Source of the DNA: a candidate division Hyd24-12 bacterium UBA6080 | GTDB taxonomy: Bacteria; Fermentibacterota; Fermentibacteria; Fermentibacterales; JCC-6 | Length of the DNA: 64,000 nucleotides | Direction: 5' to 3' | Assembly: GCA_002436025.1 (NCBI GenBank) | Contig: DIXM01000009.1 | Span: forward strand, 51,735-115,734 | Part shown: positions 20,521 to 51,152 of the stretch, piece after piece | Layout of the letters: every line of letters starts with the position of its first letter | How positions within the stretch are numbered: position 1 is the stretch's first letter | The notes under the pieces: generated by a model | What the model was told of the DNA's origin: nothing | What the model saw: only the letters and a program-made list of their open reading frames with translations | Databases searched by the model: none | Translations under genes and position numbers: made by a program

Positions 20521-22713
20521 TCAGAGCATGTGGAACGAAACCGTGAGACCCGCCATGACAATGGAAACCATGCTCATCAGTTTGATCAGGATGTTGAGGC
20601 TGGGTCCGGAAGTGTCCTTGAAGGGGTCTCCCACCGTATCGCCGATGATGGTTGCCTTGTGTGCTTCAGAGCCCTTGCCGCCAAGGTTTCCCTCTTCCAC
20701 ATACTTTTTGGCGTTGTCCCAGGCTCCGCCCGAATTGGCCATGAAGATTGCAAGCACGAAACCCGCTGCCAGCCCTCCGAAAAGCAGGCCCATGACGCCC
20801 CCGACCCCGAGGATCAGCCCGGTCAGGATCGGCACCACTATTGCCAGGGAGGCTGGAAGGACCATCTCCCTCTGCGCTCCACGGGTCGAGATCGCGACAC
20901 ATCTCGTGTAATCGGGTTCGTCGGTGCCCTCCATGATGCCGGGTTTTTCGGCAAACTGCCTGCGGACCTCGTCGACCATGCTCCCCGCTGCTCGTCCGAC
21001 CGCCTGCATCGTCAGGCCGCAGAACAGGAAGGCCATCATTGAGCCGATGAAGGCGCCGATGAGGACTATGGGGTTCATCAGGTGGATATGGTAGTGTGTC
21101 ATCAGGTCCACAAGTGTGGCTGTGGCGACTTCGACAGAATGCCCCCCCACATCTATTGCTTCAACACCCACACGCACCAGACCGACCTTTATCTCCTCGA
21201 GGTAGGAAGCAAGAAGGGCAAGCGCGGTGAGCGCCGCCGAACCAATGGCGAAGCCTTTACCGGTGGCGGCAGTTGTGTTCCCAAGGGCATCCAGGGCGTC
21301 GGTGCGCTCTCTGACCTCCTTCTCGAGCCCGGCCATTTCAGCGTTCCCGCCGGCGTTGTCGGCGATTGGGCCGTAGGCGTCAGTGGCAAGGGTTATGCCC
21401 AGGGTGGAGAGCATGCCAACAGCGGCGATGCCAATACCGTAGAGCCCCATGGAGAGATTGTCGAACTGGAAGCCGGAAGCGAAGAGAAATGACATGACGG
21501 TCCCAATGGAAACCATCAGCACGGGAACCGCCGTGGAGATCATGCCGGTGCCTATCCCCGAGATTATGACCGTGGCAGCACCGGTCCTGGCCTGTGCGGC
21601 TATCGCCTGGGTGGGTTTGTAGGCGTGCGAGGTGTAGTACTCGGTTGATTTGCCTATCACTATCCCCACGATCAGTCCCGTCACCAGTGAGCCCCACACT
21701 CCCCATGCGTTCGGGATGCCGAGAAGGTTCAGGACAACTGCTGATGCCGCAACGATGAGAATGGAGCTTGCGTTCACACCCCTGCCCAGGGCCGCCAGCA
21801 GCTGCTTCTGATCCGCCCCTTCACGGGTGCGGACAAGCAGCATGCCTATCACGGACAGCATGGTTCCTATTCCCGCAATGACAATGGGAGCTATGACGCT
21901 GTTCATCTGAACGGTGCCGCCTGCGGCGGAGAAAGCCGTTGCCCCAAGTGCTGCCGTTGCGAGGATTGCCCCGCAGTAAGACTCGTAAAGGTCGGCGCCC
22001 ATGCCGGCCACATCACCCACGTTGTCACCAACGTTGTCGGCAATCGTGGCGGGATTCCTGGGGTCGTCTTCGGGGATCCCCGCTTCAACTTTACCCACGA
22101 GGTCGGCGCCCACATCGGCGGCCTTTGTAAAAATCCCGCCCCCGACCCTGGCGAAAAGGGCCTGGGTCGACGCTCCCATGCCGAAGGTCAGCATCGTGGT
22201 CGTGATGATGATCAGTGAGGAGGACCCCCCTGATGCGGGGTAGAAGTGGTTCAGGATCAGGAACCACGCCGAGATGTCCAGAAGGGCCAGCCCCACAACG
22301 ACAAGCCCCATGACCGCTCCGCTTCTGAAAGCAAGGGTCAGGCCTTTGTTCAGGGAGTGCCGGGCGGCGTTTGCCGTTCGTGCCGAAGCCTGGGTGGCGG
22401 TCTTCATGCCGAAGAAACCGGCGAGACCCGAGAAGAAGCCTCCGGTGATGAACGCGAAGGGAACCCAGCCGTTCTGCACCTTGAGCACATAGGCCATAAC
22501 CGCGAAAAGCACGGTCAGACAGAGAAAGACGATCAGGACTACCTTGTACTGCTGTTTCAGATAGGCCATTGCACCCTTGCGAACCGCAAGGGCAATGGAG
22601 GCCATCTTCGGTGTACCCTCACTCTGCCTCATCATGTCCTTGTAGAAGAGGAACGCCACAATGAGGGCAAGAACAGATCCGATCGGAGCTATCCAGAACC
22701 ATGGTGTGAGCAT
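20521..22713 (-). CDS. hppA: Membrane-bound ion-translocating pyrophosphatase, K+-dependent type
   Basis: Typical M-PPase motifs: [80 protein letters not shown] 22713 preceded by GGAGGA. The 155-codon upstream extension in the track is unsupported. Confidence 0.95.
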
Positions 22714-22925
22714 TATATCCTCCGTTATCCCGATCGTGCTGAAAAACATGATCGAGTGAGTCGAAAGTTCCCGAAGAAGGATGGGTCGAAGAGTGGATTG
22801 GCAAACATAACTCCGCCCCATTGCAAGGCAAGATGTGTCGGGCGCGGAGGGTGGCCGTGGATAACACCCTTGAGCCCATTGATTTTGATCCGATCCGCCA
22901 CATAATTGCATGAGCAGATCGAGGG

Positions 22926-24062
22926 ATGATCGTACACAGTGAGAGGGAGGGCGAATTGGCAACCAAGTGTCCCGAGTGCGGCCATCTTTCCCCGGGTGAT
23001 CCCCGGATATGCCCGGGCTGTGGCCGGGAAGCCCGAAGGTATGATCCTTCCAGGTGCGAGTTCTGCGGCTCCCGGGTTGCGTTCGGTTCCGAGTCGTGCG
23101 GAAACTGCGGGGCGCCTTTGCAACAGGGACCTGCAGTTCCGGAAACTGGCGGCGCTCCTGTTGTTTCATCCTCGACAACCGCTCTCAGGACCGGCTGCAT
23201 CGTGGCCGTGGCTGTTCTTATCGCGCTGGTAGCGGGGTTGGTAATGTTTCTGTCCAGAAGTTCAAGAGTGTTTTCCCCGGAGGTCTCCAGCACCGAAACC
23301 ATCGAAAAACTCGAGGAGGTCGTTGTCGACGCCTCCGTACCCGATTCCATCCACACGGGGTACATCGAGGAGGACCGCAACACGGTGGAGATCATCTGGC
23401 CCAGGGTTCTCACCGACCTGCCGGACAGTTGCTACTACCCCAGCCCCTACGATCCCTGCGCCGCTTTCCGGTTCAGGGTCGAGGATCGCAGGGCGCTTGT
23501 GAAACTTGAAGCCTCTGCACCCATCGACCTTGTGATGACCCTGCTGCGCGAGGATGAGACGGGTCTTTCATATGCTGACTGGAACGAGGACGGCCCCTCC
23601 GGCTCCGACCCCATGATCGTGACGCCCCTTTCCGAGGGCACTTACGTAGCTCTGGTAACGTGCCTGGGAGGGTGGGAGTACGGCAGGGTTCGCTTCCTGT
23701 GGTCGGTGGTGATGGAGGAGATTCCCCTGGTTACAGGCGACACCACCTTCACTGTGAGTTTGAGCAGCACCAACCCAATGGCCTGTTTCGACATCGATGT
23801 TCAAAGGGGACGTACATACTCCATCAGAACGATTTCCCGGTCTCAGAACATGGATGCGTTCGTTGAGCTCACCACCGAGGGAGGTTCGGTGCTGAGCGAC
23901 GACGACAGCGGCAGGAACGACAACTGCTGGGGCGATGCTTGCCTTTCCTTCACCGCCGGACCCCTCCAGGAAGGCAGGGCCTTCGTGGTCGTGAGGCCTT
24001 ACAGCACCATGAGTCCGTCCTACAGCGACATGGATGTTGTCTTCACTGTAGGGAGCCCTTGA
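22926..24062 (+). CDS. Membrane-anchored double zinc-ribbon protein with two beta-sandwich (pre-peptidase-C-terminal-like) domains
   Basis: N-terminal CPECG...CPGCG...CEFCG...CGNCG, one TM span (IVAVAVLIALVAGLVMFL), then two roughly 100-aa repeats resembling PPC domains. An alternative TTG start at 22956 follows GAGAGGGAGGG. Confidence 0.6.
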   Translation: MIVHSEREGELATKCPECGHLSPGDPRICPGCGREARRYDPSRCEFCGSRVAFGSESCGNCGAPLQQGPAVPETGGAPVVSSSTTALRTGCIVAVAVLIALVAGLVMFLSRSSRVFSPEVSSTETIEKLEEVVVDASVPDSIHTGYIEEDRNTVEIIWPRVLTDLPDSCYYPSPYDPCAAFRFRVEDRRALVKLEASAPIDLVMTLLREDETGLSYADWNEDGPSGSDPMIVTPLSEGTYVALVTCLGGWEYGRVRFLWSVVMEEIPLVTGDTTFTVSLSSTNPMACFDIDVQRGRTYSIRTISRSQNMDAFVELTTEGGSVLSDDDSGRNDNCWGDACLSFTAGPLQEGRAFVVVRPYSTMSPSYSDMDVVFTVGSP

Positions 24063-24183: not shown

Positions 24184-25014
24184 ATGCCTGAAGTAAATCT
24201 CGTTCTTTCGATTCCGCAGGGGCTGATAACGGCCACTTCACTGGGGATAGGCGGGCTCGCCCGACACAGCAGCCCCGGTTCCGGCAAACATTTCAAGGGT
24301 CGCAAGTTGTTCGTCGATCTGACCCTGAAGGATGGAAGCCCCGACTTCGAGTATCTCGACGAGGGCAACTGGAGGAACACCAGGGGCGACACTGTCAACG
24401 CTCTGAGAGCCGCCGGGGAAGGCAAGCGCACCAAGACGGCCCTCTCCAACAACGCCTTTTCCTGCACCCCGATCAAGGCATACAGAAGCATTTATCTGGT
24501 CAAGACCGCCGGTGAAGTCATGGAGATGGAACCCCAGGGGCAGATCCATGTCTTCAAATCCAGGGACTGCCACGAGGAGATGTCCCCCGACCAGGTGGCC
24601 GAAGCCGCCGGTATTCCTTTCCAGCCCCGTCAGGGAGTTCACCTGTACCTTGTGATGTGCCCCATCCAGCTGATCCTTCTGTCCAACCTCACGCCGGTCG
24701 AGTACGCATGGTACGCCACGCACCGGCCGGGAAAGGTCTTCCGCCAGGTGATCTTCACCGAGCTGCATGACGAGCAGTTCCAGTTCGCCGCGCAGAGCCG
24801 CTTCGAGGACGCCAGGCAGGAACTCGAGACCCAGCCCGACAAGAAGACGAAGACCATCGTTTCCGACAACTGCATCAACGATGTCCTCTTCAACACCTGG
24901 CTTGGATACGGGAAGAACACCGAGGGCGGGATCTACGCGGCCGATCAGACACACATCGATCTCTGGCGTTTCCCGTCAGTGATCCCTGTGAACTGGGACA
25001 GGGCGATCGGCTGA
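24184..25014 (+). CDS. Hypothetical protein, 276 aa, no family recognised
   Basis: Clean ORF with its own promoter-like element, AAGGAG RBS and strong preference for C-ending codons (AAC, GAC, TTC, ATC, TAC, AAG). No signal peptide, TM span or recognisable motif. Confidence 0.7.
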   Translation: MPEVNLVLSIPQGLITATSLGIGGLARHSSPGSGKHFKGRKLFVDLTLKDGSPDFEYLDEGNWRNTRGDTVNALRAAGEGKRTKTALSNNAFSCTPIKAYRSIYLVKTAGEVMEMEPQGQIHVFKSRDCHEEMSPDQVAEAAGIPFQPRQGVHLYLVMCPIQLILLSNLTPVEYAWYATHRPGKVFRQVIFTELHDEQFQFAAQSRFEDARQELETQPDKKTKTIVSDNCINDVLFNTWLGYGKNTEGGIYAADQTHIDLWRFPSVIPVNWDRAIG

Positions 25015-27594: not shown

Positions 27595-27623
27595 TTGCAA
27601 CCGGACCGGGAAGTATTTATATT
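27595..27623 (+). promoter_or_regulatory. Candidate sigma70 promoter upstream of cysteine desulfurase-dsrC
   Basis: TTGCAA (27595-27600), 17-nt spacer, TATATT (27618-27623), inside an unusually AT-rich 195-nt intergenic region. A second candidate, TTGACT-17-TAGTGT, lies at 27526-27554. Confidence 0.4.
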
Positions 27624-27676: not shown

Positions 27677-28837
27677 ATGGACGGTCTGATCTATCTGGAC
27701 AACTCAGCGACATCTTTTCCGAAACCCCAGGTAGTCTACGATTTCATGAAGGAGTTCTACCAGTCCCACGGAGTCAGTCCGGGACGCTCCGGGTTCGACA
27801 AGGCCCTCGAGGCCGAAGAGGTGGTTCACTCCACCCGCAAACTCCTGACCGAGCTGTTCAACGGCACTGACCCCAACCGCCTCACCTTCAGCTACAACGC
27901 CACAGACTCGCTGAACAGGATAATCCAGGGGATGGTCTCGAAGGGCGACCACGTCATAACGACCAACCTCGAGCACAACTCGGTGCTCCGCCCGCTTTAT
28001 CACAGGAAGCACGAAGGCGACATCGACGTCACCTACATTCCCTTCGACAGCAGGGGCTACATCGACCCCGACGACGTGAAAAGGGCCTTCCGGAAGAACA
28101 CCCGGCTCGTGATAGTCAACCATTCGTCCAACATCATCGGCACGGTTCAGCCCGTGGCGGAGATAGGCAGATACTGCAGGGAGGCCGGCGTCTATTTCGC
28201 GGTCGACGCCAGCCAGAGCGCGGGTGCCGTTCCCATAGACGTAAAGGCCATGAACATCGACCTTCTGGCCTTCACCGGGCACAAATGCCTCATGGGGCCC
28301 ACCGGCATCGGCGGGTCCTACGTGGGAGAGAACGTTCCCATAAAGTGCACCATCTTCGGCGGAACCGGCGTGAGGTCGGCCCACCCGTTCCATCTTGACG
28401 AGTTCCCCTACCGCATGGAGGCGGGAACCCTGAACACCGTAGGTGTCGCGGGGCTCTTCGCGGGGGTGAAATGGGTGCTCAGCGAGGGCATGGACAACAT
28501 CCATTCACATGAGATGCGTCTGTGGGACAAACTTCGCAGGGGTGTGCAGGCCATCGACGGGGTCACCACCTACTGCGCCGACGACACAGAGAACCAGAAC
28601 CCCGTGCTCAGCCTCAACATAGACGGATGGCTGGCGGGAGACGCGGGAACGATGCTGGACGTAGATCACAACATAGCCACCCGCACGGGGTTGCAGTGCG
28701 CGCCACTGGTGCATGTCCAGCTGGGGACCGACAAACTTCACGGCACAGTGCGGTTCAGTGCCGGCCCCTTCAACACCGAAGCGGAGATAGACACCTCGAT
28801 CGAAGCGGTTCGCGAGATCGCTTCAATGAAGAAGTAG
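27677..28837 (+). CDS. Class V aminotransferase-fold cysteine desulfurase family protein
   Basis: IYLDNSATSFPKP, NLEHNSVLRP, AVDASQSAG, FTGHKCLMGPTGIGG (PLP lysine) and the C-terminal ATRTGLQCAPL loop typical of NifS/CsdA-like enzymes. RBS GGAAGGAAA. Confidence 0.88.
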   Translation: MDGLIYLDNSATSFPKPQVVYDFMKEFYQSHGVSPGRSGFDKALEAEEVVHSTRKLLTELFNGTDPNRLTFSYNATDSLNRIIQGMVSKGDHVITTNLEHNSVLRPLYHRKHEGDIDVTYIPFDSRGYIDPDDVKRAFRKNTRLVIVNHSSNIIGTVQPVAEIGRYCREAGVYFAVDASQSAGAVPIDVKAMNIDLLAFTGHKCLMGPTGIGGSYVGENVPIKCTIFGGTGVRSAHPFHLDEFPYRMEAGTLNTVGVAGLFAGVKWVLSEGMDNIHSHEMRLWDKLRRGVQAIDGVTTYCADDTENQNPVLSLNIDGWLAGDAGTMLDVDHNIATRTGLQCAPLVHVQLGTDKLHGTVRFSAGPFNTEAEIDTSIEAVREIASMKK

Positions 28838-28874: not shown

Positions 28875-29192
28875 ATGGACATTGTAAGGGTGAACGACAG
28901 GGAACTTCATGTGGACGGCGACGGATTCCTGCAGGAACCGGAACTCTGGGATGAAGCGGTCGCGGTCGAGTTCGCAAGGCTCGACGGCACCGGTGAACTC
29001 GGCCCCAAGCACTGGGAGTTGATCACGTACATCCGTGCGTTCTGGAAGGATTCGGACATGGCGCCCACAGTCAGGAGCCTTTGCAAGGAAAGCGGGCTCA
29101 AACTGAAGGAACTGTACGAGCTCTTTCCCAAGGGTCCCGCCAGGGGAGCATGCAAGATCGCCGGTCTGCCCAAACCTGACGGTTGCGTGTAA
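28875..29192 (+). CDS. dsrC: DsrC/TusE-family sulfur-relay protein, DsrC type (both C-terminal cysteines)
   Basis: GFLQEPELWDE...HWELITYIRAFW...LFPKGPARGACKIAGLPKPDGCV. Penultimate Cys plus a second Cys 10 residues upstream. Confidence 0.9.
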   Translation: MDIVRVNDRELHVDGDGFLQEPELWDEAVAVEFARLDGTGELGPKHWELITYIRAFWKDSDMAPTVRSLCKESGLKLKELYELFPKGPARGACKIAGLPKPDGCV

Positions 29193-29208: not shown

Positions 29209-30102
29209 TCAGGACCTCGTGATCCTTGCGATCAACCCGTCCCGGGGGATCGTCGATATCGAGGCTACCTGTGACGGGTCGAACCCCATGCACACCGCAA
29301 GAAGCTGGTTGTAGTCGAATACGGGGAAGGCGCAGGCCGAATCGCCGTTCTTTTTATTCATCTCGTTCTGCATCCTGTCCATGTGTTCAAGACAGGTGAT
29401 GCAGGACACGACGATCAACTCGGCGTCGGTTTCCTTTTTCATGGCATCGAGCTTCTTGAAGGCGAACTCCGACGCACCTGCAAAGCTTCCCTTGGTAAAA
29501 CCGCCGGCCCCTCCGCAGCACTGCAGCTCCCGGCTGTAGGTTTGCACCGTTGCGCCCAGTGCCTCCACCAGTTCCTGCAGCATGCGGGGCCGCCCCGGTG
29601 GTGAGTCGAACCCCACGATCTCGCTTGGGAAGAGCGTGTGGCAGGGGTACTGAACCGTGGCGTTCACGCCCTCGAGGGGGAACTTCAGGGCGCCGCGAAT
29701 GGTCTCGGTGCCCACATCGTTGTAGAGCACGTCAATGATGTGCCGTACTGCCACGGTTCCGCTGAAGCTCTTTCCCGCCGGTTTCAGAAGCCGGTTCACG
29801 GCTTCCCTCTTCTCACCGTCTTCCAGAAGCTTTTTTCGGGCAATCCGCAGTGAGCTGTAGCACGAGCCGCACTCGGTCACGAGGTCGACGCCCATCTCCT
29901 CGGCGATTGAGAAGTTCCACGCGCTCACTGCAAGCCCCGCCGTCTCGTCGGCGGACGGGAACGCGCCGAAGGCCGGGCAGCACACACTTCCCTCGAGGTC
30001 GACCAGCTCGGCTCCGAGAGCGGGCATAGTGAGCCTTATCGCCCGTTCAACATCGGGTCTCACCGCCGGAACATTGCATCCGAGGAAGAATCCGTACTTC
30101 AT
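29209..30102 (-). CDS. hdrB: Heterodisulfide reductase subunit B-like (two CCG domains)
   Basis: YGFFLGCNVP..., CCPAFG and QCCGGAGG cysteine-rich CCG motifs. Confidence 0.9.
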   Translation of the reverse strand: MKYGFFLGCNVPAVRPDVERAIRLTMPALGAELVDLEGSVCCPAFGAFPSADETAGLAVSAWNFSIAEEMGVDLVTECGSCYSSLRIARKKLLEDGEKREAVNRLLKPAGKSFSGTVAVRHIIDVLYNDVGTETIRGALKFPLEGVNATVQYPCHTLFPSEIVGFDSPPGRPRMLQELVEALGATVQTYSRELQCCGGAGGFTKGSFAGASEFAFKKLDAMKKETDAELIVVSCITCLEHMDRMQNEMNKKNGDSACAFPVFDYNQLLAVCMGFDPSQVASISTIPRDGLIARITRS

Positions 30103-30105
30103 TGG

Positions 30106-30615
30106 TCAGTCCTTGAACATGTATTCGTTGTCTCGTACGATGTCGGTGTTTCTCAGCATCTCCCTGAACTTCTCCAGAAGCTCGGGGAACTTCACGATTG
30201 TGGGAGGGACCTCGTCGAGCCCCACCGCCCGCCTCTTTTCCCTGACCTGGCCCAGCGCCTGGGTGTGCCCGGTCTCGAATATCTCGGAGATGGCGGCGGG
30301 AATGAACGTTTCGTCGTTCCGGCTCTGCCATCGTCTTATCGCCAGGCACACCTCGAAGGGATGGACCCCCATCGGGCACATCTCCTCACAAGCGGAGCAT
30401 GTGACGCAGAGCCAGGGCGTCTCATCCTCGAGAAGCGCTTCCTCGAGCCCCAGAAGGACCTTCCGGACCAGGTTGCGTATGAGGAGGGGAGGGGAACCCT
30501 CGGCTGCGGGGCAACCCGCCACGCAGGTATTGCAGTTGAAGCATTTCCTGATGTCGCCGCACGACTCGGTGATCTCGCGCCAGAGCGCGGTATTGATGTT
30601 CGTCAGGTCGGTCAT
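30106..30615 (-). CDS. hdrC: Heterodisulfide reductase subunit C-like (2x[4Fe-4S])
   Basis: CFNCNTCVAGCP and CVTCSACEEMCP ferredoxin motifs. Size and position directly upstream of hdrB. Confidence 0.88.
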   Translation of the reverse strand: MTDLTNINTALWREITESCGDIRKCFNCNTCVAGCPAAEGSPPLLIRNLVRKVLLGLEEALLEDETPWLCVTCSACEEMCPMGVHPFEVCLAIRRWQSRNDETFIPAAISEIFETGHTQALGQVREKRRAVGLDEVPPTIVKFPELLEKFREMLRNTDIVRDNEYMFKD

Positions 30616-30616
30616 G

Positions 30617-31456
30617 TCAGTACTCTCCCGGCAGGGTGCTCAGACGGGCCGTGCTGAAAACCGGACCGTCCGTGCACACATAGGCTTCCCCGATGTTGCA
30701 CCGTCCGCATTTGCCAATGCCGCACTTCATCTTCATCTCGAGCGACAGGAAGATCCTTTCGGGCGGAAGGCCCAGCTCTGTCAGAACGGGGAGTGTGTAC
30801 CTTATCATTGCCGGGGGGCCGCACACCAGGGCTGTGGTTTTCCCGGCATCGATGGAGAGCTCCCTCACGACGGCCGGCACCACTCCGGTCCTGCCGGTCC
30901 ACGAATCATCCGGGGTATCGACCGTAACACGAAGGTCGATGTCGTTCCTTTTGCCCCATTCCAGAAGGTCCTGCCGGTAGAGAAGGAGACCGGGGTTCCT
31001 GGCGCCGTACACAACTGTCAGGTCGCCGAAGAGACCGCGGTTGTCCGGGTGCAGGGCGTATCCCGTGAAGGCGCGCAGTGTTGAGAAGCCGAACCCCCCT
31101 CCCACGACAAGGACGTTCCGGCCCTCCAGTTCCTCGAGTGGGTACCCGTTTCCCAGCGGACCCCTCATTCCTACAGAGTCCCCGGTTTCCAGGTTGTGAA
31201 GCTCCGATGTGACAAGGCCTATCCTGCTGACCGTGAAATCCAGCAAACCTGGGTCGACAGGTGACGATGCGATACCGAATGGCGCCTCCCCCGTACCAAG
31301 CAGGGATAGTTCAGCGAACTGCCCGGCCCTGAAGCTGAAGGCTTCCGAGTCCCCTTTTCTCGCGAATGACAGCGAAAGCGTCCGGATGCTGCCGTCATCG
31401 GTCTCTGTCACGCTCTTCGAAACCCTCATGGGAAAGGGCAGGTAGGGGTTCATCAT
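30617..31456 (-). CDS. FAD/NAD(P)-binding oxidoreductase with C-terminal [2Fe-2S] (HydG/AsrB/FlxA-like)
   Basis: FRAGQFAELS...GEAPFGIASSP (FAD site), VLVVGGGFGFS (NAD(P) Rossmann), C-terminal CGIGKCGRCNIG. Confidence 0.85.
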   Translation of the reverse strand: MMNPYLPFPMRVSKSVTETDDGSIRTLSLSFARKGDSEAFSFRAGQFAELSLLGTGEAPFGIASSPVDPGLLDFTVSRIGLVTSELHNLETGDSVGMRGPLGNGYPLEELEGRNVLVVGGGFGFSTLRAFTGYALHPDNRGLFGDLTVVYGARNPGLLLYRQDLLEWGKRNDIDLRVTVDTPDDSWTGRTGVVPAVVRELSIDAGKTTALVCGPPAMIRYTLPVLTELGLPPERIFLSLEMKMKCGIGKCGRCNIGEAYVCTDGPVFSTARLSTLPGEY

Positions 31457-31457
31457 C

Positions 31458-32516
31458 CTACTCCTCTCCCGGTTTGTTGTGGAAGAACGCCATGATCCTG
31501 CGGATGTCGAGGTTCACCGGGCATTCAGTGACGCACCGGCCGCACCCCACGCAGCCCACTGTGCCGTACCTGTCGGCGCAGAAGCTGAACTTGTGCATGA
31601 AGCGCTGGCGGTACCTTTCCCTGTAAGTGGGCCTGGGGTTGAACCCCGAAGCCTGCCGCGTGAAACAGGGGAACTGGCACGAGTCCCAGATCCGGTTTCT
31701 CACACGGGAGTTTCCGCAAACCTCATCGACGATGTCAAAGCAGTGACAGGTCGGACAAACGTAGGTGCAGACCCCGCACCCCACGCACTTCTCAGTCAGT
31801 GCGTTCCAGGCAGCCGCATCGAAGGAGCCGTCCAGCGACTCCTTCAGGACGGACAGGCCGACCCTGGGCTGCATCTCCGCCATGCACAGTTCTGCGGTCT
31901 TTCTGACGGCCTGCACAGAGCTTTCATCGGCTTGAGCGAGCCCGTGCTGCGAAAGGAACCTGGCGCCCTTTTCGGTCACGGTGAACACGATGTACTCATC
32001 CCCGTGCTCCGCCATGAGCAGGTCGGACCCCTCGGTCGAGAACGGACCACCACCGGTCGTGGTGCAGAAACACGTCGTGTGCGGGTGCGAACACCCCAGG
32101 GAGACAACGAGCAGCGATTCCCTCCTCCTGGCGTAATAGGTGTCGCGGTCAGCCTCTCCGTCGAAAACACCGTCGAGGAAGCGTATTCCCCTGGCGTCGC
32201 AGGGGCGGACACCGAACAGGACCACCCGGCCGGGTTCAGGGGTGTGTTCGACAACATCCTCCCCTTCAGGGGACGAACACGGGCATGACAGAAGTGTTTC
32301 CACCTGGGGCAGTACGACGCCCTTCGGGGACGAGACGCTGTTCGAGTAATCGAGCGCGGCCTCGGTGCCGGAGGATATCGCCCTGAAGCTTACCACGCCG
32401 TCATGTTTCACAGGGGCAACCACGGTGCAATCAGGATCGGCCAGAAGCCCGTCCAGGAAACCGGCCATATCGCCCTTCCCCAAACGCACTGAAAGCATCT
32501 CCTTCATTCCGCGCAT
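31458..32516 (-). CDS. 4Fe-4S dicluster protein (HydB/AsrA/FlxB-like)
   Basis: CVGCGVCTYVCPTCHCFD and CVGCGRCVTECP motifs. Paralogue of 49313-50341. ATG 32507 would give an ATGA overlap with the upstream stop and may be the true start. Confidence 0.82.
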   Translation of the reverse strand: MRGMKEMLSVRLGKGDMAGFLDGLLADPDCTVVAPVKHDGVVSFRAISSGTEAALDYSNSVSSPKGVVLPQVETLLSCPCSSPEGEDVVEHTPEPGRVVLFGVRPCDARGIRFLDGVFDGEADRDTYYARRRESLLVVSLGCSHPHTTCFCTTTGGGPFSTEGSDLLMAEHGDEYIVFTVTEKGARFLSQHGLAQADESSVQAVRKTAELCMAEMQPRVGLSVLKESLDGSFDAAAWNALTEKCVGCGVCTYVCPTCHCFDIVDEVCGNSRVRNRIWDSCQFPCFTRQASGFNPRPTYRERYRQRFMHKFSFCADRYGTVGCVGCGRCVTECPVNLDIRRIMAFFHNKPGEE

Positions 32517-33478
32517 GGTGATCCGCCCGTCATGAAATCCTCAGGGTCATCGGGTTCGAAACAGGAAAGCGGCGCCGGTTCGCTCAGGCTCATTCCCGGC
32601 CTGTACCCGAACATGCCTGCCACATCGGATGACACCTTCCGGTGAAGCGTGCGTATGTCAACGTTCATGGGACATGCCCGTTCACAGGCTCCGCACTCCA
32701 CGCACCTTCCCGCGAGGTGCAGCGAACGCATCAGATGGAAAGAGAGCGTGTCGCTTCCGCCGACACCCTTGCCCACCCACTGGGGCATCGTGGCGTCGAC
32801 GAAGCAGTTCGCACAGTAGCAGAGGGGGCACGCGTCGCGGCAGGCGTAACAGCGGATGCATCGGTCCATCTCCCCGGTGATCCGTGCCCACCTCTCGTCC
32901 GCCGGGACCGCAGCAAAGCTGGTCACGTCACGATACGTGTCGCCCGGCAGTTCCTGAACCGGCTCGCCCGCCAGAACGTCATGAATGACCGGGTTCCTTT
33001 GAGTGCAGACCCTGCAGCCCGAATGCAGGCATTCATCCCGGGGGATACGAACGGTCCGCGCGGCATCAGTGACAAGAAGAAAGCCGTCCCGTTCCTCGAC
33101 CGACAGTATCTCCCTGCCTTCGCACAGTCCGTGCAAAATGCTTTCATCGACCATGCCGTCGCAGGGAACTCCGATTATCACCAGGTTTTCCCTTTGGACC
33201 TGATTCTCCTTTATGAGTTCGACGATCGAGCGTGTGTCACAGCCCTTGGCAACAAGGGCTATCCGTTTGTCAAAGCGGCGTATGTACCTGCTCAGATTGT
33301 TGCCGCAGAATGAATTCCAGACAAGCCTCCCGGCATCGGCAGCATCGGAGACAAAACACGGCGTTGCCCGGAGGGGCAGGGAGCCCTGCTCGAAACCGAT
33401 GACCACGTCTACCGTGCCCTCGGCAAGGAGGTGTGCCGCCTCTTCGCGTATCCTTGCGGTGAGACCGGTGCGGCTCAC
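32504..33478 (-). CDS. Iron-sulfur protein, FrhB-like N-terminal region plus 4Fe-4S dicluster (FlxC-like)
   Basis: IALVAKGCDTRSIVELI...IIGVPCDG, then CIRCYACRDACPLCYC and CVECGACERACP. GTGA overlap with mvhD. Confidence 0.7.
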   Translation of the reverse strand: MSRTGLTARIREEAAHLLAEGTVDVVIGFEQGSLPLRATPCFVSDAADAGRLVWNSFCGNNLSRYIRRFDKRIALVAKGCDTRSIVELIKENQVQRENLVIIGVPCDGMVDESILHGLCEGREILSVEERDGFLLVTDAARTVRIPRDECLHSGCRVCTQRNPVIHDVLAGEPVQELPGDTYRDVTSFAAVPADERWARITGEMDRCIRCYACRDACPLCYCANCFVDATMPQWVGKGVGGSDTLSFHLMRSLHLAGRCVECGACERACPMNVDIRTLHRKVSSDVAGMFGYRPGMSLSEPAPLSCFEPDDPEDFMTGGSPCAE

Positions 33479-33945
33479 TTCCGAACCCCCGTTCCGACCA
33501 TCTGCCTCACGGGGCCCAGAGCCCGCACGGTTTCGGTGACCGAGCCCATCACATCCGCGAACCTGCCGCCCTCCGATGCGGATATCCAGGTGAAGTGAAG
33601 CCTGCCCTCCTCGATGCCTATGTGGTCAAGCAGGCCCTTCAAAAGGGCGAACTTGCGGCGTGCGCTGTAGTTGCCGCTTATGTAATGGCAGTCGCCGGGG
33701 TGGCAGCCGCTCACGATGACTCCGTCGGCGCCCTTCTGGAAAGCCGACAGAATGAAGAACGGGCTGATCCGTCCCGAACAGGGCACCCTTATGACCCTCA
33801 CGTTGGGCGGGTACTGAAGCCGCCCCACCCCGGCCAGGTCGGCGCCGGCGTAACTGCACCAGTTGCAGAGAAAGGCGATTATCCGGGGTTCCCACTCCAC
33901 GGCCTGGTTCTCCATCCCTTCCCCTTCGCGCAATTCCGTGTTCAT
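33475..33945 (-). CDS. mvhD: MvhD/FlxD-like [2Fe-2S] protein (methyl-viologen-reducing hydrogenase delta subunit family)
   Basis: IIAFLCNWCSYAGADLAG...IRVPCSGRI...GADGVIVSGCHPGDCHY signature. ATG 33945 forms an ATGA overlap with the hdrA stop; the track ORF extends to 34038. Confidence 0.9.
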   Translation of the reverse strand: MNTELREGEGMENQAVEWEPRIIAFLCNWCSYAGADLAGVGRLQYPPNVRVIRVPCSGRISPFFILSAFQKGADGVIVSGCHPGDCHYISGNYSARRKFALLKGLLDHIGIEEGRLHFTWISASEGGRFADVMGSVTETVRALGPVRQMVGTGVRK

Positions 33946-36900
33946 GACCGCAGCACACTTGTCTGTATCATCGAGAATATCTCGTTGTCGGTGAACCCCT
34001 TTATCCCGGCTGCGCCGCTGCGGCACGACGACGCGCATACGCCGCAGCCCTTGCAGAGGGCCTCGTTCACAGCCGCAATGCTCTCGTTGTCAACAAGATC
34101 AATTGCGCCGTAGGGGCAGAGTTCCACGCACAACCCGCAGCCCCTGCACCTGTTCCTGTCTATGAAACTGACGGTTCCGCCGGCTTCGATGAAATCACGG
34201 GACAGGATGACGGCGGCCCTCGAGGCCGCGGCCCCGGCCTGGATCATGCTCTCTCCGATGAGCTTGGGGCTGTGGGCCAACCCGCAGACGAAGACGCCCT
34301 CGGAGGGGAAATCGACAGGACGTAGCTTGATGTGCGATTCCATGAAAAAGCCGTCCTCGTTCAGTGGGACCTTGAACATCCCCGCAAGCTCCCTGGCCCC
34401 GGGTGACGGGACTATGGCCGTGGCGAGTCCCAGGACATCGGCGTCGACCGAGAGCTCCTCGTTGAGTATCAGGTCGGTCACGGTGACCCTGACGCGTTCC
34501 TCTCCGTCGCGAATGACCAGCTCGACCGTGGGCTTCTGCTCAGGGTCGTACTGAAGGAACTGCACGCCCGCTTCCCGCGCCTCGAGGTAGTACTGCTCGA
34601 GGAACCCGTAGGTTCGAATGTCGCGGTAGAGCACGTAGATGTTCGCATCGGGGCTGGCTTTCCTGATCTCGAGGGCGATCTTGACGGATTTGCTGCAGCA
34701 GGTACGGCTGCAGTAGGGCCTCTCGGCGTCCCGGGAACCAACGCACTGGATAAGCACGATGTTCCTCGCCCCGAGGACAAGGGGGTTCTTCGCGGCCACT
34801 TCGCCCTCGAGTTCCAGAAGCGAGAAGACGCGGGGGCTCTGTCCGTACAGGTACTCACCGGTCCGGTACGGCTCGCCCCCCGAGGCTATCACGGCCACGC
34901 CGTGTGTGACCTCGGTCCTGCCGCCACCGGAGGTGTGTTCAAGCGTGGTGGTGAAGTTGCCAACGAACCCCCGAACATCGCTGATGCGGGATTCGGTGTG
35001 AAGCGTTATCAGCGGTTCGTTCGAAATCCTTTCCGAAAGCTCCTTCACGAACCCGGGAACATCCATGCCCTCGATGGTGGAATGAAGCCTTCGGGCGTTG
35101 CCGCCCAGCACGGAAGACATCTCCACCAGGTGAACCCCGAACCCCAGCGACGCGAGAGCAAGTGCGTTCACCATGCCCGCGATGCCGCCCCCCACCACAA
35201 GGGCCGACCTGTTCACATCGAGCCTGGTCTGGAACAGGGGCTCGATAAGCTTTGCCTTCGCCACGGACATCCGGACAAGGTCCTTTGCCTTTTGTGTGGC
35301 CATTTCTGGCTGGTCCTGATGGACCCAGGAACACTGGTCCCGGATGTTTGCCATCTCGAACAGGTACTTGTTGAGGCCAGCTTCCCGCATCGTCTCCATG
35401 AAAAGCGGCTCATGGGTCCTGGGCGTGCACGCCGCAACGACTACCCGGTTGAGCCGGTGGGTGGCTATGCAGTCCTTTATCCTGTGCTGGTTGTCCTGCG
35501 AGCAGGAGAAGAGGGCGTCATCCACGTAAACCACGTTCGGAAGGGTCTGAGCGTAGGCTTTGACCTCGGCGATGTTCACGACGCTGCTTATGTTGATGCC
35601 GCAGTGGCAGATGAAAACCCCGATGCGGGGTTTCCCCCCGGCCGCAACAGTTTCCCGGGGGTACGACTTCGCAAGGGTGAGGTTGTGCCTGGAACCGGCC
35701 AGAAGGGCCGAGGCTTCTGCTGCTGCAGCGCTTGCCCCCATGACCGTCTCGGGGATGTCCTTCGGGCCTGTGAAAGCCCCCGCGGCGAATATCCCGGGTG
35801 AGGAAGTGCCGACCGGCGAGAAGACCCCGGTTGCGCAGAACCCGTGCTCGTTCAGCTCGAGGCCCAGCCTCTTCGCCATCTCGCGGTTGGCGCTGCCCTG
35901 AACCATCCCCACGGACAGAACGACGAGGTCGTAGACTTCCTCGCGGATCGCGCCATTCTCAACGTACCTGAGCGTGAGGTTCTCGGAGCGGTCACGGTAT
36001 ATCCGGTGTATCTCGGACTTCACGAACCTGACTCCATGACAGCTCTTCGCGCGTTCGTAGTAACGCTCGAAGCCCTTGCCGTGGGTCCTTATATCGATGT
36101 AGAAGATGGTCGTGCCAAGTTCGGAACCTGAGTGCTCCTTTGCGACCACCGCCTCCTTGATGGCGTAGGTGCAGCACACCGAGGAGCAGTAGTTGTTGTG
36201 CACGCGGTGCGTGTCCCGCGAGCCCACGCACTGTATCCATGCGATGTTCCGCGGCGCCTTCCCGTCCGACGGCCTGAGCAGTCTGCCCTGATATGGCCCG
36301 GAGGCGCTGAGTATCCTCTCGAACTCCATGCTTGTTATCACGTTGGGGAAAGCTCCGTAGCCGTAGTTGGCCAGAAGGCCTGCATCGAACGCCTCGAAAC
36401 CCGGACACGCAATGACGGCCCCCACGTAGAGCGCAAGGGTCTTCGGCTCCATGCAAAGATCTATCGCGCCGGCGCTGCATGTCTTCTCGCAGAGCCTGCA
36501 CTTTCTGCACACGTCCATGTCGATCTCGAACGAGGGCGGATACGCCTGCTCGTAAAGGCGGAACACCGCCTTCTTCCCGTTCAGCCCCCTGTTGAACGGA
36601 TCGGGCAGCCCGACCGGGCACTTTTTCGCGCATTCGCCGCAGCCCGTGCACTTGAGGGGGTCGACGTACCTTGGCTCCTGTCGAACCGTGGCCGTGAATG
36701 CGCCCGGGTTTCCCTCGATGCCAAGGAATTCGGAGTTGGTGAGTATCTCGATGTTCAGGTGCCTGCCGCACTCGACCAGCTTGGGGGAGAGGATGCACAT
36801 TGAGCAGTCGTTGGTGGGGAACGTCTTGTCCAGCGCGGCCATGGTGCCGCCTATGGCTCCAAGCTTCTCCACCAGATAGACCTTGAACCCCGAATCGGCA

Positions 36901-36977
36901 AGATCGAGCGAGGCCTGAATGCCGCCTATGCCGCCCCCGAGCACAAGGACCGCGCCTGTAGGGTCAAGGGGTTTCAT
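33942..36977 (-). CDS. hdrA: Large HdrA-family flavo-iron-sulfur protein with two FAD (thioredoxin-reductase-like) modules
   Basis: Two dinucleotide-binding motifs (VLGGGIGGIQASLDLADSG; VVGGGIAGMVNALALASLG). Two IQCVGSRD...C..CC motifs. TFPTNDCSMCIL. Internal HdrA N-domain (IGVFICHCGINI...VVVAACTPRTHEPLF...NIRDQCSWVH). Inserted and C-terminal ferredoxin domains. Confidence 0.9.
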   Translation of the reverse strand: MKPLDPTGAVLVLGGGIGGIQASLDLADSGFKVYLVEKLGAIGGTMAALDKTFPTNDCSMCILSPKLVECGRHLNIEILTNSEFLGIEGNPGAFTATVRQEPRYVDPLKCTGCGECAKKCPVGLPDPFNRGLNGKKAVFRLYEQAYPPSFEIDMDVCRKCRLCEKTCSAGAIDLCMEPKTLALYVGAVIACPGFEAFDAGLLANYGYGAFPNVITSMEFERILSASGPYQGRLLRPSDGKAPRNIAWIQCVGSRDTHRVHNNYCSSVCCTYAIKEAVVAKEHSGSELGTTIFYIDIRTHGKGFERYYERAKSCHGVRFVKSEIHRIYRDRSENLTLRYVENGAIREEVYDLVVLSVGMVQGSANREMAKRLGLELNEHGFCATGVFSPVGTSSPGIFAAGAFTGPKDIPETVMGASAAAAEASALLAGSRHNLTLAKSYPRETVAAGGKPRIGVFICHCGINISSVVNIAEVKAYAQTLPNVVYVDDALFSCSQDNQHRIKDCIATHRLNRVVVAACTPRTHEPLFMETMREAGLNKYLFEMANIRDQCSWVHQDQPEMATQKAKDLVRMSVAKAKLIEPLFQTRLDVNRSALVVGGGIAGMVNALALASLGFGVHLVEMSSVLGGNARRLHSTIEGMDVPGFVKELSERISNEPLITLHTESRISDVRGFVGNFTTTLEHTSGGGRTEVTHGVAVIASGGEPYRTGEYLYGQSPRVFSLLELEGEVAAKNPLVLGARNIVLIQCVGSRDAERPYCSRTCCSKSVKIALEIRKASPDANIYVLYRDIRTYGFLEQYYLEAREAGVQFLQYDPEQKPTVELVIRDGEERVRVTVTDLILNEELSVDADVLGLATAIVPSPGARELAGMFKVPLNEDGFFMESHIKLRPVDFPSEGVFVCGLAHSPKLIGESMIQAGAAASRAAVILSRDFIEAGGTVSFIDRNRCRGCGLCVELCPYGAIDLVDNESIAAVNEALCKGCGVCASSCRSGAAGIKGFTDNEIFSMIQTSVLRS

Positions 36978-37418
36978 GAATAGTTTTCTGCTCTCCCGTA
37001 AGATGGCACACCAGATTAACGCGCATTGCCTGTTGCGGTGGAACCGCCACTTTGCATCTGAAACCTTGGAAAACTAAGTCAGCTCTGAAGTTACCGAACA
37101 CGCCGAAGTGGCGCCGGCCCGGGAAAGCTATCCACCCAGGCCCTCCGCTCCAGAGCAAAAATAGCGTGTTGGGCGAGCCAAGGCAATCTCCACCGGGGGG
37201 TAGCGAACGTTCCTGGCACAGTGCCGCTGCAATCCCACTCAGCATTGCATCCGGCACATGAGGATTATTAAGCCTCATCGCTCGGGGAACAGTCTCTTTA
37301 CCTGTTCTGTCAGCCCTTCACATCACCAGCAGTCATTGCGTAATGAGATGAAATGCGTCATTGTGCATCCATCGGTATCGAGAGGTGCCTTCTGTTCTGC
37401 GGAAGTGGAAGGAGCAAT

Positions 37419-49312: not shown

Positions 49313-50341
49313 ATGACATTTTTGAGCAGGGTTCACTTCGAGTCACTACTGAAGGCTCTCGGTGGGACCCACAAACTCCTCTTCCCAGTCGGGAGCGGGA
49401 GCAAGTCACATTTCACATCCATTGACAGATCAGACCCGGGCAGCGCTTTCATCGGCGGTGTCAGGTCGGTAGAGCCCCTCAAGGCCTTCTTCTTCTCAGG
49501 CCGCGAGAGGGTTGCCTCGGGTTTCGAACCCGGCCTTCCCGGCCGGGAGCTCCAACCGCTCTGCGTGGTTGGCGCCAAGGCATGCGATCTGAAAGGGTTC
49601 CGCATTCTCGACCATGTCTTTCTCGACCACGAGTTCGGCGATCCCACCTACAAACGCCTGAGGAGGGAAAGCCTCGTGATCTCCTCTGACTGCACCGACG
49701 CCCTGGAAACATGCTTCTGCACGTCACTCGACGGGCTGCCCTACCCGGAAGACGGGTTCGACATCAACCTCTCACCGGTCAGTGGAGGTTTTCTTGCCGA
49801 GGCTGGCTCGGAAAAAGGCCGGGCGCTAATGGCTGCCCATTCATCTCTCTTCACCGATCCTTCGCCAAAGCAGCAGCAGGAACGGAGAGAAAACAGGGAG
49901 GCCGTGCTTGAGAAACTGCGGACAATTGCGGAAGCAGGCGGAACACCCGGCGCTGAAAGCCTGAAGGGCGCTGTGGCAAGAAGATACGATGCTCCACTGT
50001 GGGCGGAAGAGGCCGCGACCTGTGTCGAGTGCGGGGCATGCAACACGATCTGTCCCACCTGCCACTGCTTCTATCTTTACGACCAGATGGCTCAGGGAAC
50101 CACAGGCAGGTTCAGGATGTGGGATTCCTGCCTCATCAACGACTTCGCCCGCGTCGCCGGCGGAGAGAACCCCAGGTCCCGGCTGTGGATGAGGTTGCGG
50201 AACCGCTTCGAGAAGAAGTTCGATTTCTTCCCAAAGGTTGCCGGAGAGTTCGCCTGTACCGGTTGCGGCAGGTGTTCAGCGGCCTGCCCCGGCAGGATCG
50301 ACATAAGGCGCGTATTGAGAAGACTGGTGGAGAATGGATAA
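49313..50341 (+). CDS. 4Fe-4S dicluster protein, sulfhydrogenase-beta/AsrA-like (HydB-like)
   Basis: CVECGACNTICPTCHCFYLYD and CTGCGRCSAACP. Same architecture as 31458-32516. Confidence 0.82.
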   Translation: MTFLSRVHFESLLKALGGTHKLLFPVGSGSKSHFTSIDRSDPGSAFIGGVRSVEPLKAFFFSGRERVASGFEPGLPGRELQPLCVVGAKACDLKGFRILDHVFLDHEFGDPTYKRLRRESLVISSDCTDALETCFCTSLDGLPYPEDGFDINLSPVSGGFLAEAGSEKGRALMAAHSSLFTDPSPKQQQERRENREAVLEKLRTIAEAGGTPGAESLKGAVARRYDAPLWAEEAATCVECGACNTICPTCHCFYLYDQMAQGTTGRFRMWDSCLINDFARVAGGENPRSRLWMRLRNRFEKKFDFFPKVAGEFACTGCGRCSAACPGRIDIRRVLRRLVENG

Positions 50342-51152
50342 AAACCCGTACAGGTCAGTGAAAACGGAAGTACTGGAAGTGATCACTGAAACCCCCTCCA
50401 TAACTACGATCAGGCTCCGGCCCTCGGAGCCTCTTTCTTTCTCCCCCGGGCAGTTCATGGAAGTCTCCGTTCCGGGCGTCGGTGAAGCGCCGTTCACGCC
50501 TTCATCTTTCTGCGGCGACCATGAGAAGATGGACATAACCATTGTAAAGGTCGGCAAGGTCACCGAAGCCATCCACGAGCTGAAAGCCGGTGATATTGTC
50601 GGGCTCAGGGGACCCTACGGCCACGGCTACCCGCTCGACGAATTCAGGGGGAAGGAAGTTCTGGTCGTGGGTGGCGGTGTGGGGCTCGCCCCCCTTAGAA
50701 CCCTCATGTATTCTTTGTTCGACATGAGGGGCGACCTCGGGAAGCTGGCGTATCGTGCCGGCTGCAGGCAGCCCTGCGAGTTCCTGTACCGCGAAGAGAT
50801 AATGGGCTGGCTGGACCGGCCCGACCTCGACATCCGGCTCACCACCGACCAGTGCGACGAAACATGGAGCTGCGCTACCGGGCTTGTGACATCGATCATG
50901 GACAGCTCGTGCGTCAACCCGGCAAACGCCGTGGGAATTTCCTGCGGCCCCCCGGTCATGATGAAATTCGTCACGTTCAGAATGCTGGAGATGGGCATTC
51001 CACCGGAGAGGATCTACCTCTCCATGGAGAAGAACATGTCGTGCGGCTTCGGGAAGTGCGGCCACTGCAGGCTTGGAACGTTCTACTGCTGCAAGGACGG
51101 GCCGGTGTTCACCTACGCGCAGATAAAAGACATTCCCGGGATATGGGACTGA
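50334..51152 (+). CDS. FAD/NAD(P)-binding [2Fe-2S] oxidoreductase, sulfhydrogenase-gamma/AsrB-like (HydG-like)
   Basis: FSPGQFMEVSVPGVGEAPFTPSS, VLVVGGGVGLAPL, C-terminal CGFGKCGHCRLG. Paralogue of 30617-31456. Confidence 0.85.
   Translation: MDKNPYRSVKTEVLEVITETPSITTIRLRPSEPLSFSPGQFMEVSVPGVGEAPFTPSSFCGDHEKMDITIVKVGKVTEAIHELKAGDIVGLRGPYGHGYPLDEFRGKEVLVVGGGVGLAPLRTLMYSLFDMRGDLGKLAYRAGCRQPCEFLYREEIMGWLDRPDLDIRLTTDQCDETWSCATGLVTSIMDSSCVNPANAVGISCGPPVMMKFVTFRMLEMGIPPERIYLSMEKNMSCGFGKCGHCRLGTFYCCKDGPVFTYAQIKDIPGIWD

Follow-up and report, generated by a model that had tools for sequence, protein, structure and literature searches.

The desulfurase-dsrC pair and the Flx-Hdr operon

The window analysed here is a stretch of 64,000 nucleotides (nt) from the candidate division Hyd24-12 bacterium UBA6080, a member of the Fermentibacterota (contig DIXM01000009.1, positions 51,735 to 115,734). 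On its minus strand, at positions 29209-36977, it carries seven genes with the content of a FlxABCD-HdrABC system (Flx-Hdr). Convergent to these genes lies a pair that consists of a cysteine desulfurase gene and dsrC (Table 1). Gene identities were assigned from Pfam and NCBIfam profile matches to the open reading frames (ORFs), and the closest solved chains were taken from a comparison with the PDB. The source genome of the window comprises 2.82 Mb in 18 contigs and is 95% complete.

Table 1 Features of the Flx-Hdr locus, with positions in the window (aa, amino acids; FAD, flavin adenine dinucleotide).
Feature	Position	Strand	Description
promoter-like site TTGCAA-17-TATATT	27595-27623	+	AT-rich leader of the desulfurase gene; consensus match only
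cysteine desulfurase gene	27677-28837	+	Pfam Aminotran_5; TIGR01977; SufS-like short active-site loop
dsrC	28875-29192	+	105 aa; C-terminal arm with two cysteines, C93-x10-C104-V; separated from the desulfurase gene by 37 nt
hdrB	29209-30102	-	two CCG domains; proposed site of DsrC disulfide/persulfide reduction
hdrC	30106-30615	-	two [4Fe-4S] motifs; TIGR03290 and Fer4_8 matches; electron wire to HdrB
flxA	30617-31456	-	FAD_binding_6, NAD_binding_1, DHODB_Fe-S_bind; entry subunit with FAD, NAD(P)H and [2Fe-2S]; HydG/AsrB-like
flxB	31458-32516	-	Fer4_22; Fe-S subunit of HydB/ShyB/AsrA type
flxC	32504-33478	-	FrhB_FdhB_C and two 4Fe-4S motifs; FrhB/FdhB-like Fe-S subunit
flxD	33475-33945 (longest ORF 33475-34038)	-	FlpD, E 2e-54; MvhD-type [2Fe-2S] protein
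hdrA	33942-36977	-	1011 aa; three HdrA stretches aligning to 5odc_A
non-coding stretch upstream of hdrA	36978-37352	-	375 nt; presumed location of the operon promoter

All seven Flx-Hdr genes form one operon, as judged from their tight junctions, which are either overlaps or gaps of 1-3 nt. For flxD there are two candidate starts, ATG 33945, which gives an ATGA overlap with the hdrA stop codon, and ATG 33915, which is preceded by a good ribosome binding site. The flxD/flxC junction is a GTGA overlap. At the flxB/flxC junction there is either an overlap of 13 nt or a later start of flxB, and the true start may be ATG 32498. The gaps between flxB and flxA, flxA and hdrC, and hdrC and hdrB are 1, 1 and 3 nt. 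In the original prediction, which was made from the sequence of the window, this region had been described as seven tightly coupled minus-strand genes with the content of FlxABCD-HdrABC. Our ORF coordinates and domain assignments agree with this description, and all seven subunit types are matched by domains.

The closest solved chains to FlxA and FlxB are the gamma subunit (9nez_C, E 1e-51) and the beta subunit (9nez_B, E 3e-45) of Pyrococcus sulfhydrogenase I. The two genes were considered as part of a sulfhydrogenase, which was rejected because their neighbours are flxC and hdrC rather than hydrogenase genes. The only paralogs of flxA and flxB in the genome are found in the window at about 49538-51140. 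FlxC is nearest to FdhB chains solved as part of Fdh-Hdr supercomplexes (7bkb_E, 9t1s_M, 8rvu_E) and is probably the docking partner of FlxD. HdrA, MvhD and HdrBC are each encoded once in the genome.

The full length of HdrB can be aligned to its solved counterpart from Methanothermococcus (5odc_B, E 2e-58), and all 10 cluster-binding CCG cysteines are in register. The CCG motifs are thus not degenerate, which would have counted against the original prediction if they had been. HdrA could be mapped onto 5odc_A in three stretches. Residues 7-374 represent a first FAD module of the thioredoxin reductase (TrxR) type with an inserted ferredoxin domain, residues 449-602 an HdrA N-terminal domain, which is followed by a second FAD module of the TrxR type, and residues 856-1005 the C-terminal ferredoxin domain. 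The second FAD module has neither the inserted ferredoxin domain nor the TFPTNDCSMC motif, and from this domain layout the 1011-aa protein is not a simple tandem duplication. The cysteines for its seven predicted [4Fe-4S] clusters are invariant across 14 homologs. An AlphaFold2 (AF2) model of HdrA (predicted template modelling score, pTM, 0.79) has HdrA chains as its best fold matches. We infer that, by carrying two FAD modules, a single chain takes the part of the homodimer that HdrA forms in methanogens. HdrA proteins with a length of about 1010 aa have a wide distribution among both bacteria and archaea.

The convergent orientation of dsrC and hdrB was confirmed, with 16 nt between the stop codons. 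The dsrC product ends GACKIAGLPKPDGCV, so that both cysteines of redox-active DsrC are present. It is the only member of the DsrC family in the source genome and matches the TusE/DsrC model TIGR03342. Its nearest solved relatives are the DsrC proteins 1ji8 (1e-28) and 2v4j_C (4e-25), with a match of only 7e-6 to the TusE-type sulfurtransferase 7syb.

The desulfurase gene directly upstream of dsrC had been overlooked in the original prediction, and we consider it the best candidate for the step that re-oxidises DsrC. The gene product is a class-V pyridoxal phosphate (PLP) enzyme which scores 415 bits with TIGR01977 (cut-off 377). In an alignment of its homologs, neither the PLP lysine (FTGHKC) nor the catalytic cysteine (RTGLQCAP) varies. 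A desulfurase-DsrC fusion was suggested by open frames of 374-563 aa in the dsrC region, but was ruled out by tblastn, which places the two in different frames or apart from each other.

Sulfur metabolism genes of the source genome

The original prediction had seen no dsrAB or dsrMK in the window, and this can be extended to the genome. A search of the source genome for a complete dsr regulon found none: DsrA (TIGR02064) has no match, DsrB (TIGR02066) has only weak ferredoxin-like matches below the cut-off, AprA was not found, and the NIR_SIR domain (PF01077) has no match of any kind. HdrB is the only CCG-domain protein of the genome, which therefore encodes no DsrK or HdrD.

The search did find an orphan ATP sulfurylase (G000:C8:187308-188405; L200:1492-2613) with PUA_2 and ATP-sulfurylase domains and an above-cut-off score of 404 bits for TIGR00339. 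It is surrounded by small ORFs of unknown kind and an S49 peptidase, with no adenosine 5'-phosphosulfate (APS) reductase or sulfite reductase beside it. A fusion protein of at least 720 aa (G000:C1 at about 249959-252121; L196:52-2214) combines a flavoprotein similar to CoA disulfide reductase (CoADR) with rhodanese, TusA and DsrE_2 domains and looks like an NAD(P)H persulfide/polysulfide reductase. The genome has no other TusA domain, and of its two DsrE-family matches one falls in this protein and the other in a small ORF (C2:107866-108219). DsrH/TusB was not found in the source genome.

Co-inheritance in Fermentibacterota

We surveyed 70 genomes of the phylum, a set which rests on metagenome-assembled genomes (MAGs) and includes a closed genome. 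DsrC is encoded in 18 of the 70. An HdrB ortholog (72-96% identity) occurs in the same 18 genomes, and the remaining ones have only CCG paralogs with at most 40% identity to HdrB. The desulfurase ortholog (80-96% identity) is again found in exactly these 18 genomes, and the next desulfurase paralogs in the phylum do not exceed 45% identity. The arrangement is also constant. In all 18 genomes with this module, the desulfurase gene is followed by dsrC, and both are convergent to hdrB and hdrC. The closed genome carries the module, as does the type species Candidatus Fermentibacter daniensis, which has it in full (L151, L158). NIR_SIR was found in none of the 70 genomes, including the closed genome with the module.

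The desulfurase-DsrC pair beyond the phylum

Orthologs of the desulfurase with 68-76% identity carry the names Bacteroidales, Ignavibacteria, Latescibacterota and Zhuqueibacterota. We scanned metagenomes with a profile that had the Bacteroidales ortholog as its lead sequence and obtained 80 loci, and contexts were counted for the 31 loci in which the desulfurase gene is flanked by at least 3.5 kb in both directions. In 24 of these, the desulfurase is accompanied by a two-cysteine DsrC and two further proteins, one of 435 aa that has CCG and ferredoxin domains and one of 210 aa. The 435-aa protein resembles HmcF/TmcB/DsrK and the 210-aa protein weakly resembles HmcE. DsrC and HdrBC-Flx were found in six loci, and one locus has neither in view. 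Together, DsrC and a CCG reductase occur with this desulfurase subfamily in 30 of the 31 contigs. Outside Fermentibacterota, only two loci carry a taxon name, Bacteroidales (L116) and Ignavibacteria (L129).

All 84 complete DsrC proteins that are linked to the desulfurase have 105 aa, the C-x10-C spacing and a tail of the form PKP(D/E/N)GCV. The tail is PKPTGCV in loci of Desulfobacteraceae, Desulfosudis and Desulfotomaculum (L016, L023, L026, L071) and in Desulfovibrio vulgaris (2v4j_C).

In a desulfurase tree, which was obtained by a quick search and rooted on a long-branch paralog, the sequences linked to Flx-Hdr form one clade (89 in the Shimodaira-Hasegawa-like approximate likelihood ratio test, SH-aLRT) that is nested within those linked to the DsrMK-like proteins. 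This tree points to a single exchange of the CCG partner. Judged from gene neighbourhoods, the constant core is a desulfurase, DsrC and a predicted CCG reductase, the latter being either membrane-bound or soluble.

In one locus with the DsrMK-like module (L153:7410-12687), a menaquinone-biosynthesis gene (VitK2_biosynth) precedes dsrC by about 0.5 kb, the two being separated by an 89-aa ORF that belongs to no known family; such a neighbour fits a quinol-linked reductase.

Gene order

The order hdrA-flxDCBA-hdrCB had originally been described as permuted, but synteny comparison does not support it as special. An HdrA profile retrieved 80 loci, nearly all of which have hdrA-flxD and many of which have hdrA-flxDCBA. 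The complete arrangement with hdrCB was seen in the closest relative (L002) and also in an Archaeoglobi MAG (L067), which has two adjacent dsrAB-like NIR_SIR genes in its genome. Gene order was therefore rejected as a novelty, as hdrA-flxDCBA is a common block.

Two Promethearchaeota MAGs (L047:3687-16394, L072:2902-14512) have the order hdrC-hdrB-hdrA-flxD-hdrA-flxDCBA, with two HdrA genes per cluster, the second of which is the double-module version. In a deltaproteobacterial MAG (L014:17494-18141), two tandem genes of the DsrC family are found downstream of two HdrA-MvhD pairs, and both C-terminal cysteines are missing from their products (tail ...ALKIAGLYV).

Proposed mechanism

The locus would code for a soluble complex of the FlxABCD-HdrABC type that oxidises NAD(P)H at FlxA. 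Electrons would pass from FlxA via FlxB, FlxC and FlxD to the flavin or flavins of HdrA. This path is supported by the similarity of FlxA and FlxB to the NADPH module of sulfhydrogenase I and of FlxC to docking FdhB subunits, and it corresponds to the scheme put forward for the D. vulgaris enzyme. HdrA would probably bifurcate the electrons: one branch would end at ferredoxin, and HdrC would carry the other to the CCG clusters in HdrB, which would reduce the adjacent two-cysteine DsrC.

As there is no sulfite reductase in the phylum, oxidised DsrC is most likely produced by the co-inherited desulfurase. The enzyme would take the sulfane sulfur from L-cysteine, leaving alanine, and transfer it to the penultimate cysteine of DsrC. 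The resulting persulfide could be resolved by the second cysteine or be reduced directly by HdrB, and H2S would be released. The net reaction would be 2 NADH + cysteine + oxidised ferredoxin -> 2 NAD+ + alanine + H2S + reduced ferredoxin, and the reduced ferredoxin could supply the hydrogenases encoded nearby. Directly visible are the gene content, the intact motifs, the lack of Dsr/Apr enzymes and the strictly conserved company of desulfurase, DsrC and a CCG reductase. We infer the route of the electrons, the bifurcation, the passing of sulfur to DsrC by the desulfurase and the direction in which the system runs in the cell, and we propose with moderate confidence that cysteine sulfur is loaded onto DsrC and reduced by Flx-Hdr with NADH, yielding H2S and reduced ferredoxin.

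The reaction of cysteine with H2 to alanine and H2S is estimated to yield about -60 kJ/mol, with an E0' of about -105 mV (formation energies of Thauer 1977). As this potential is similar to that of the heterodisulfide couple by which bifurcation is driven in methanogens, NADH-driven bifurcation to ferredoxin appears feasible overall. The sulfur transfer step has an in vitro parallel, as Escherichia coli IscS with cysteine persulfurates the DsrC of Allochromatium vinosum at the penultimate cysteine (PMC3397948).

Several points weigh against this mechanism. The desulfurase gene and dsrC are convergent to the hdr operon and are not co-transcribed with it. HdrA has an unusual build with two flavins. 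The module is missing from 52 of the 70 genomes of the phylum, and the single origin of the Flx-Hdr association in the tree means that its occurrence in the phylum counts as only one evolutionary event. The 80 desulfurase loci came from a search for sequences similar to a single Bacteroidales ortholog; many of them are kin, and they are not phylogenetically independent. Finally, with a DsrC disulfide or persulfide potential close to that of S0/H2S (-270 mV), bifurcation from NADH to ferredoxin would no longer be exergonic.

A wider version of this proposal covers the other lineages. Dedicated desulfurases of the TIGR01977 type may load cysteine sulfur onto two-cysteine DsrC of the distinct PKPDGCV clade in a DsrAB-independent cycle, from which a CCG reductase would release H2S; this reductase would be the soluble, NADH-driven and ferredoxin-reducing Flx-Hdr in Fermentibacterota and a membrane-bound enzyme similar to DsrMK/HmcEF in Bacteroidales, Ignavibacteria and the other contigs. 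We put this forward tentatively, as a possibility that we would not yet call probable.

Alternative explanations

In the original prediction, the locus had been interpreted as a redox-balancing valve in a fermenter. The fermentative gene context and the absence of a sulfite reductase agree with this, but a valve requires a re-oxidant of DsrC, and the best candidate for it, the co-inherited desulfurase, had been left out. A plain valve, as proposed for Desulfovibrio, in which DsrC is a dithiol/disulfide carrier between Flx-Hdr and some other oxidant or partner and the desulfurase serves another purpose, accounts for the gene content, which equals that of Flx-Hdr, and for the position of dsrC outside the hdr transcription unit. 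In addition, DsrC of D. vulgaris reportedly interacts directly with FlxABCD-HdrABC (cited in PMC10504309). However, with no DsrAB, DsrK or other CCG protein the genome offers no candidate for the DsrC oxidant, and the strict linkage is left unexplained, as the desulfurase ortholog occurs only where DsrC and HdrB occur. This linkage to DsrC even persists in loci that have another enzyme as CCG partner. We thus regard the plain valve as unlikely.

Elemental sulfur (S0) or polysulfide from the environment could also persulfurate DsrC, with Flx-Hdr then producing H2S at the expense of NADH and the desulfurase having an auxiliary or priming role. Sulfide or S0 species do persulfurate DsrC in vitro (PMC3397948), S0 reduction has been proposed for Ca. 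Fermentibacter on other grounds (PMC5030696), and the CoADR-rhodanese-TusA-DsrE fusion encoded in the genome is typical of persulfide handling. Linked to the module, however, there is no sulfur importer, no stand-alone rhodanese and no TusA, and it is the cysteine desulfurase which is the only invariant partner across lineages. This makes a sulfur or polysulfide reductase decidedly improbable.

As a member of the TusE/DsrC family (TIGR03342), DsrC could also be a TusE-like partner of the desulfurase in a relay for tRNA thiolation, thio-cofactors or Fe-S assembly, the Hdr operon being merely adjacent. In biosynthesis, such pairs of a desulfurase and a sulfur acceptor are the rule. Such a relay has little to recommend it: the second cysteine, which is absent in TusE, has been kept, the CCG reductase is always alongside, and absence from 52 genomes of the phylum is unlike a housekeeping function. 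The specific TusA-TusBCD-TusE version was rejected, as there is no DsrH/TusB, the TusA domain is found together with a DsrE domain in one fusion protein, and DsrC matches DsrC-type chains in the PDB far better than the TusE-type chain.

A role in selenium handling, with the desulfurase as an SclA-type selenocysteine lyase that passes selenium via DsrC to SelD, has a negligible chance and was rejected, since SclA, the second-best NCBIfam match of the desulfurase, scores 312 bits and thus far below its cut-off of 525, and since SelD occurs in 63 of the 70 genomes irrespective of the module, with selD located elsewhere. The phylum does use selenocysteine, and selD has one in-frame TGA in almost all of its genomes, so that SelD is probably a selenoprotein. 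The class-V proteins encoded next to selD are different paralogs, 41-45% identical to the desulfurase (G036:C31:4343-6441, G026:C70:8238-10351, G013:C74:5815-7931).

Comparison with known systems

Flx-Hdr enzymes as a family, and their connection with DsrC, are already known. A FlxABCD-HdrABC NADH dehydrogenase/heterodisulfide reductase has reportedly been described for D. vulgaris by Ramos and co-workers in 2015 and by Ferreira and co-workers in 2023 (cited in PMC7382037 and PMC10504309). The locus described here shares with that system the seven subunit types in one operon, a two-cysteine DsrC as presumed substrate, and a HydG/AsrB-like FlxA for NAD(P)H. It differs in the order hdrA-flxDCBA-hdrCB, in the 1011-aa HdrA with its two flavin modules, in a host that lacks DsrAB, DsrMK and AprAB, and in the dedicated desulfurase paired with DsrC, the tail of which is PKPDGCV instead of PKPTGCV.

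With the MvhAGD-HdrABC and Fdh-Hdr complexes of methanogens (5odc, 7bkb, 8rvu) it has in common a full-length HdrB with CCG cysteines, the HdrA domains, MvhD and an FdhB-like FlxC. However, the donor module is the NAD(P)H-linked FlxAB instead of a hydrogenase or formate dehydrogenase, the proposed substrate is the protein DsrC rather than CoM-S-S-CoB, and the second FAD module is located in the same HdrA chain.

The proposed reduction of a two-cysteine DsrC by a CCG-type protein with release of sulfide resembles the DsrC/DsrMK(JOP) step of sulfite reduction. The resemblance extends to other lineages, where the desulfurase-DsrC pair adjoins a pair of DsrK/HmcF-like and DsrM/HmcE-like proteins (one Bacteroidales and one Ignavibacteria contig). 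In contrast to sulfite reduction, there is no DsrAB to provide a DsrC trisulfide, cysteine is the proposed sulfur source, and in Fermentibacterota the soluble Flx-Hdr would replace the membrane reductase.

Among desulfurases, the group II pairs SufS-SufE, SufS-SufU and CsdA-CsdE are similar in that a PLP enzyme with a short cysteine loop is found beside a small cysteine-bearing acceptor. Here, however, DsrC is the acceptor, and the two are associated with a redox enzyme instead of the biosynthesis of Fe-S clusters or cofactors.

A double-module HdrA with FlxDCBA beside a two-cysteine dsrC is also found in the hdrA/hdrL-flxDCBA-dsrC loci of Desulfobacteraceae MAGs and of Desulfosudis oleivorans (L016:2249-9207, L023:10001-17009, L026:10001-16927). 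In these lineages, which are sulfate reducers by name, dsrC follows directly after flxA on the same strand, and there is neither hdrBC nor an adjacent desulfurase.

Other features of the window

The window has a fermentative context with genes for fumarase, malic enzyme, hydrogenase maturation proteins and a hydrogenase. Genes for [NiFe] large subunits are found at distances of about 17 and 28 kb from the Flx-Hdr operon. One of these lies inside the window (at about 53668). A second large-subunit gene is located just beyond the window end, within a 490-aa open frame (G000:C17:116295-117494).

The leader upstream of hdrA has no Rfam match and no sigma-70-like site in a consensus scan, and a scan for intrinsic terminators between the convergent dsrC and hdrB genes found none. 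A riboswitch or other known RNA was considered for the leaders of both operons and dismissed, as the Rfam scan found none apart from one chance microRNA match.

An ORF for an H+-pyrophosphatase (20521-23178, minus strand) is listed with 885 aa. As the Pfam match begins only at residue 169, translation probably starts well beyond the first TTG. A 276-aa ORF (24184-25014, plus strand) between a zinc-ribbon/PPC protein and a methionine-gamma-lyase-like gene has no Pfam or NCBIfam match.

Implications

The founding paper of Hyd24-12 proposes a sulfhydrogenase and S0 reduction, finds no potential for sulfate reduction and makes no mention of Hdr or DsrC (PMC5030696). The second cysteine of DsrC has been said to occur only together with DsrAB, apart from rare exceptions (PMC3397948), and the DiSCo tool counts DsrC in genomes without DsrAB as false positives (PMC8477390). 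In a literature search that covered papers available without subscription, we found no description of a two-cysteine DsrC clade in phyla lacking DsrAB, of an obligatory pairing of DsrC with a TIGR01977 desulfurase, or of an interchange between DsrMK-like and Flx-Hdr reductases.

A two-cysteine DsrC has so far been taken to indicate a sulfur metabolism that is based on DsrAB. In Fermentibacterota, a phylum without sulfite reductase, the surveyed genomes never have it without the desulfurase and the heterodisulfide-type reductase. This co-inheritance suggests a use of cysteine sulfur as an electron sink that has not been described before. If this is true, Flx-Hdr would have a defined oxidant in organisms that do not reduce sulfate, and it would be explained how electrons from NADH reach ferredoxin and H2 in abundant digester fermenters such as Ca. 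Fermentibacter. The conversion of cysteine to alanine and H2S would then be an energy-conserving electron sink and an overlooked route to sulfide in anaerobic digesters and sediments.

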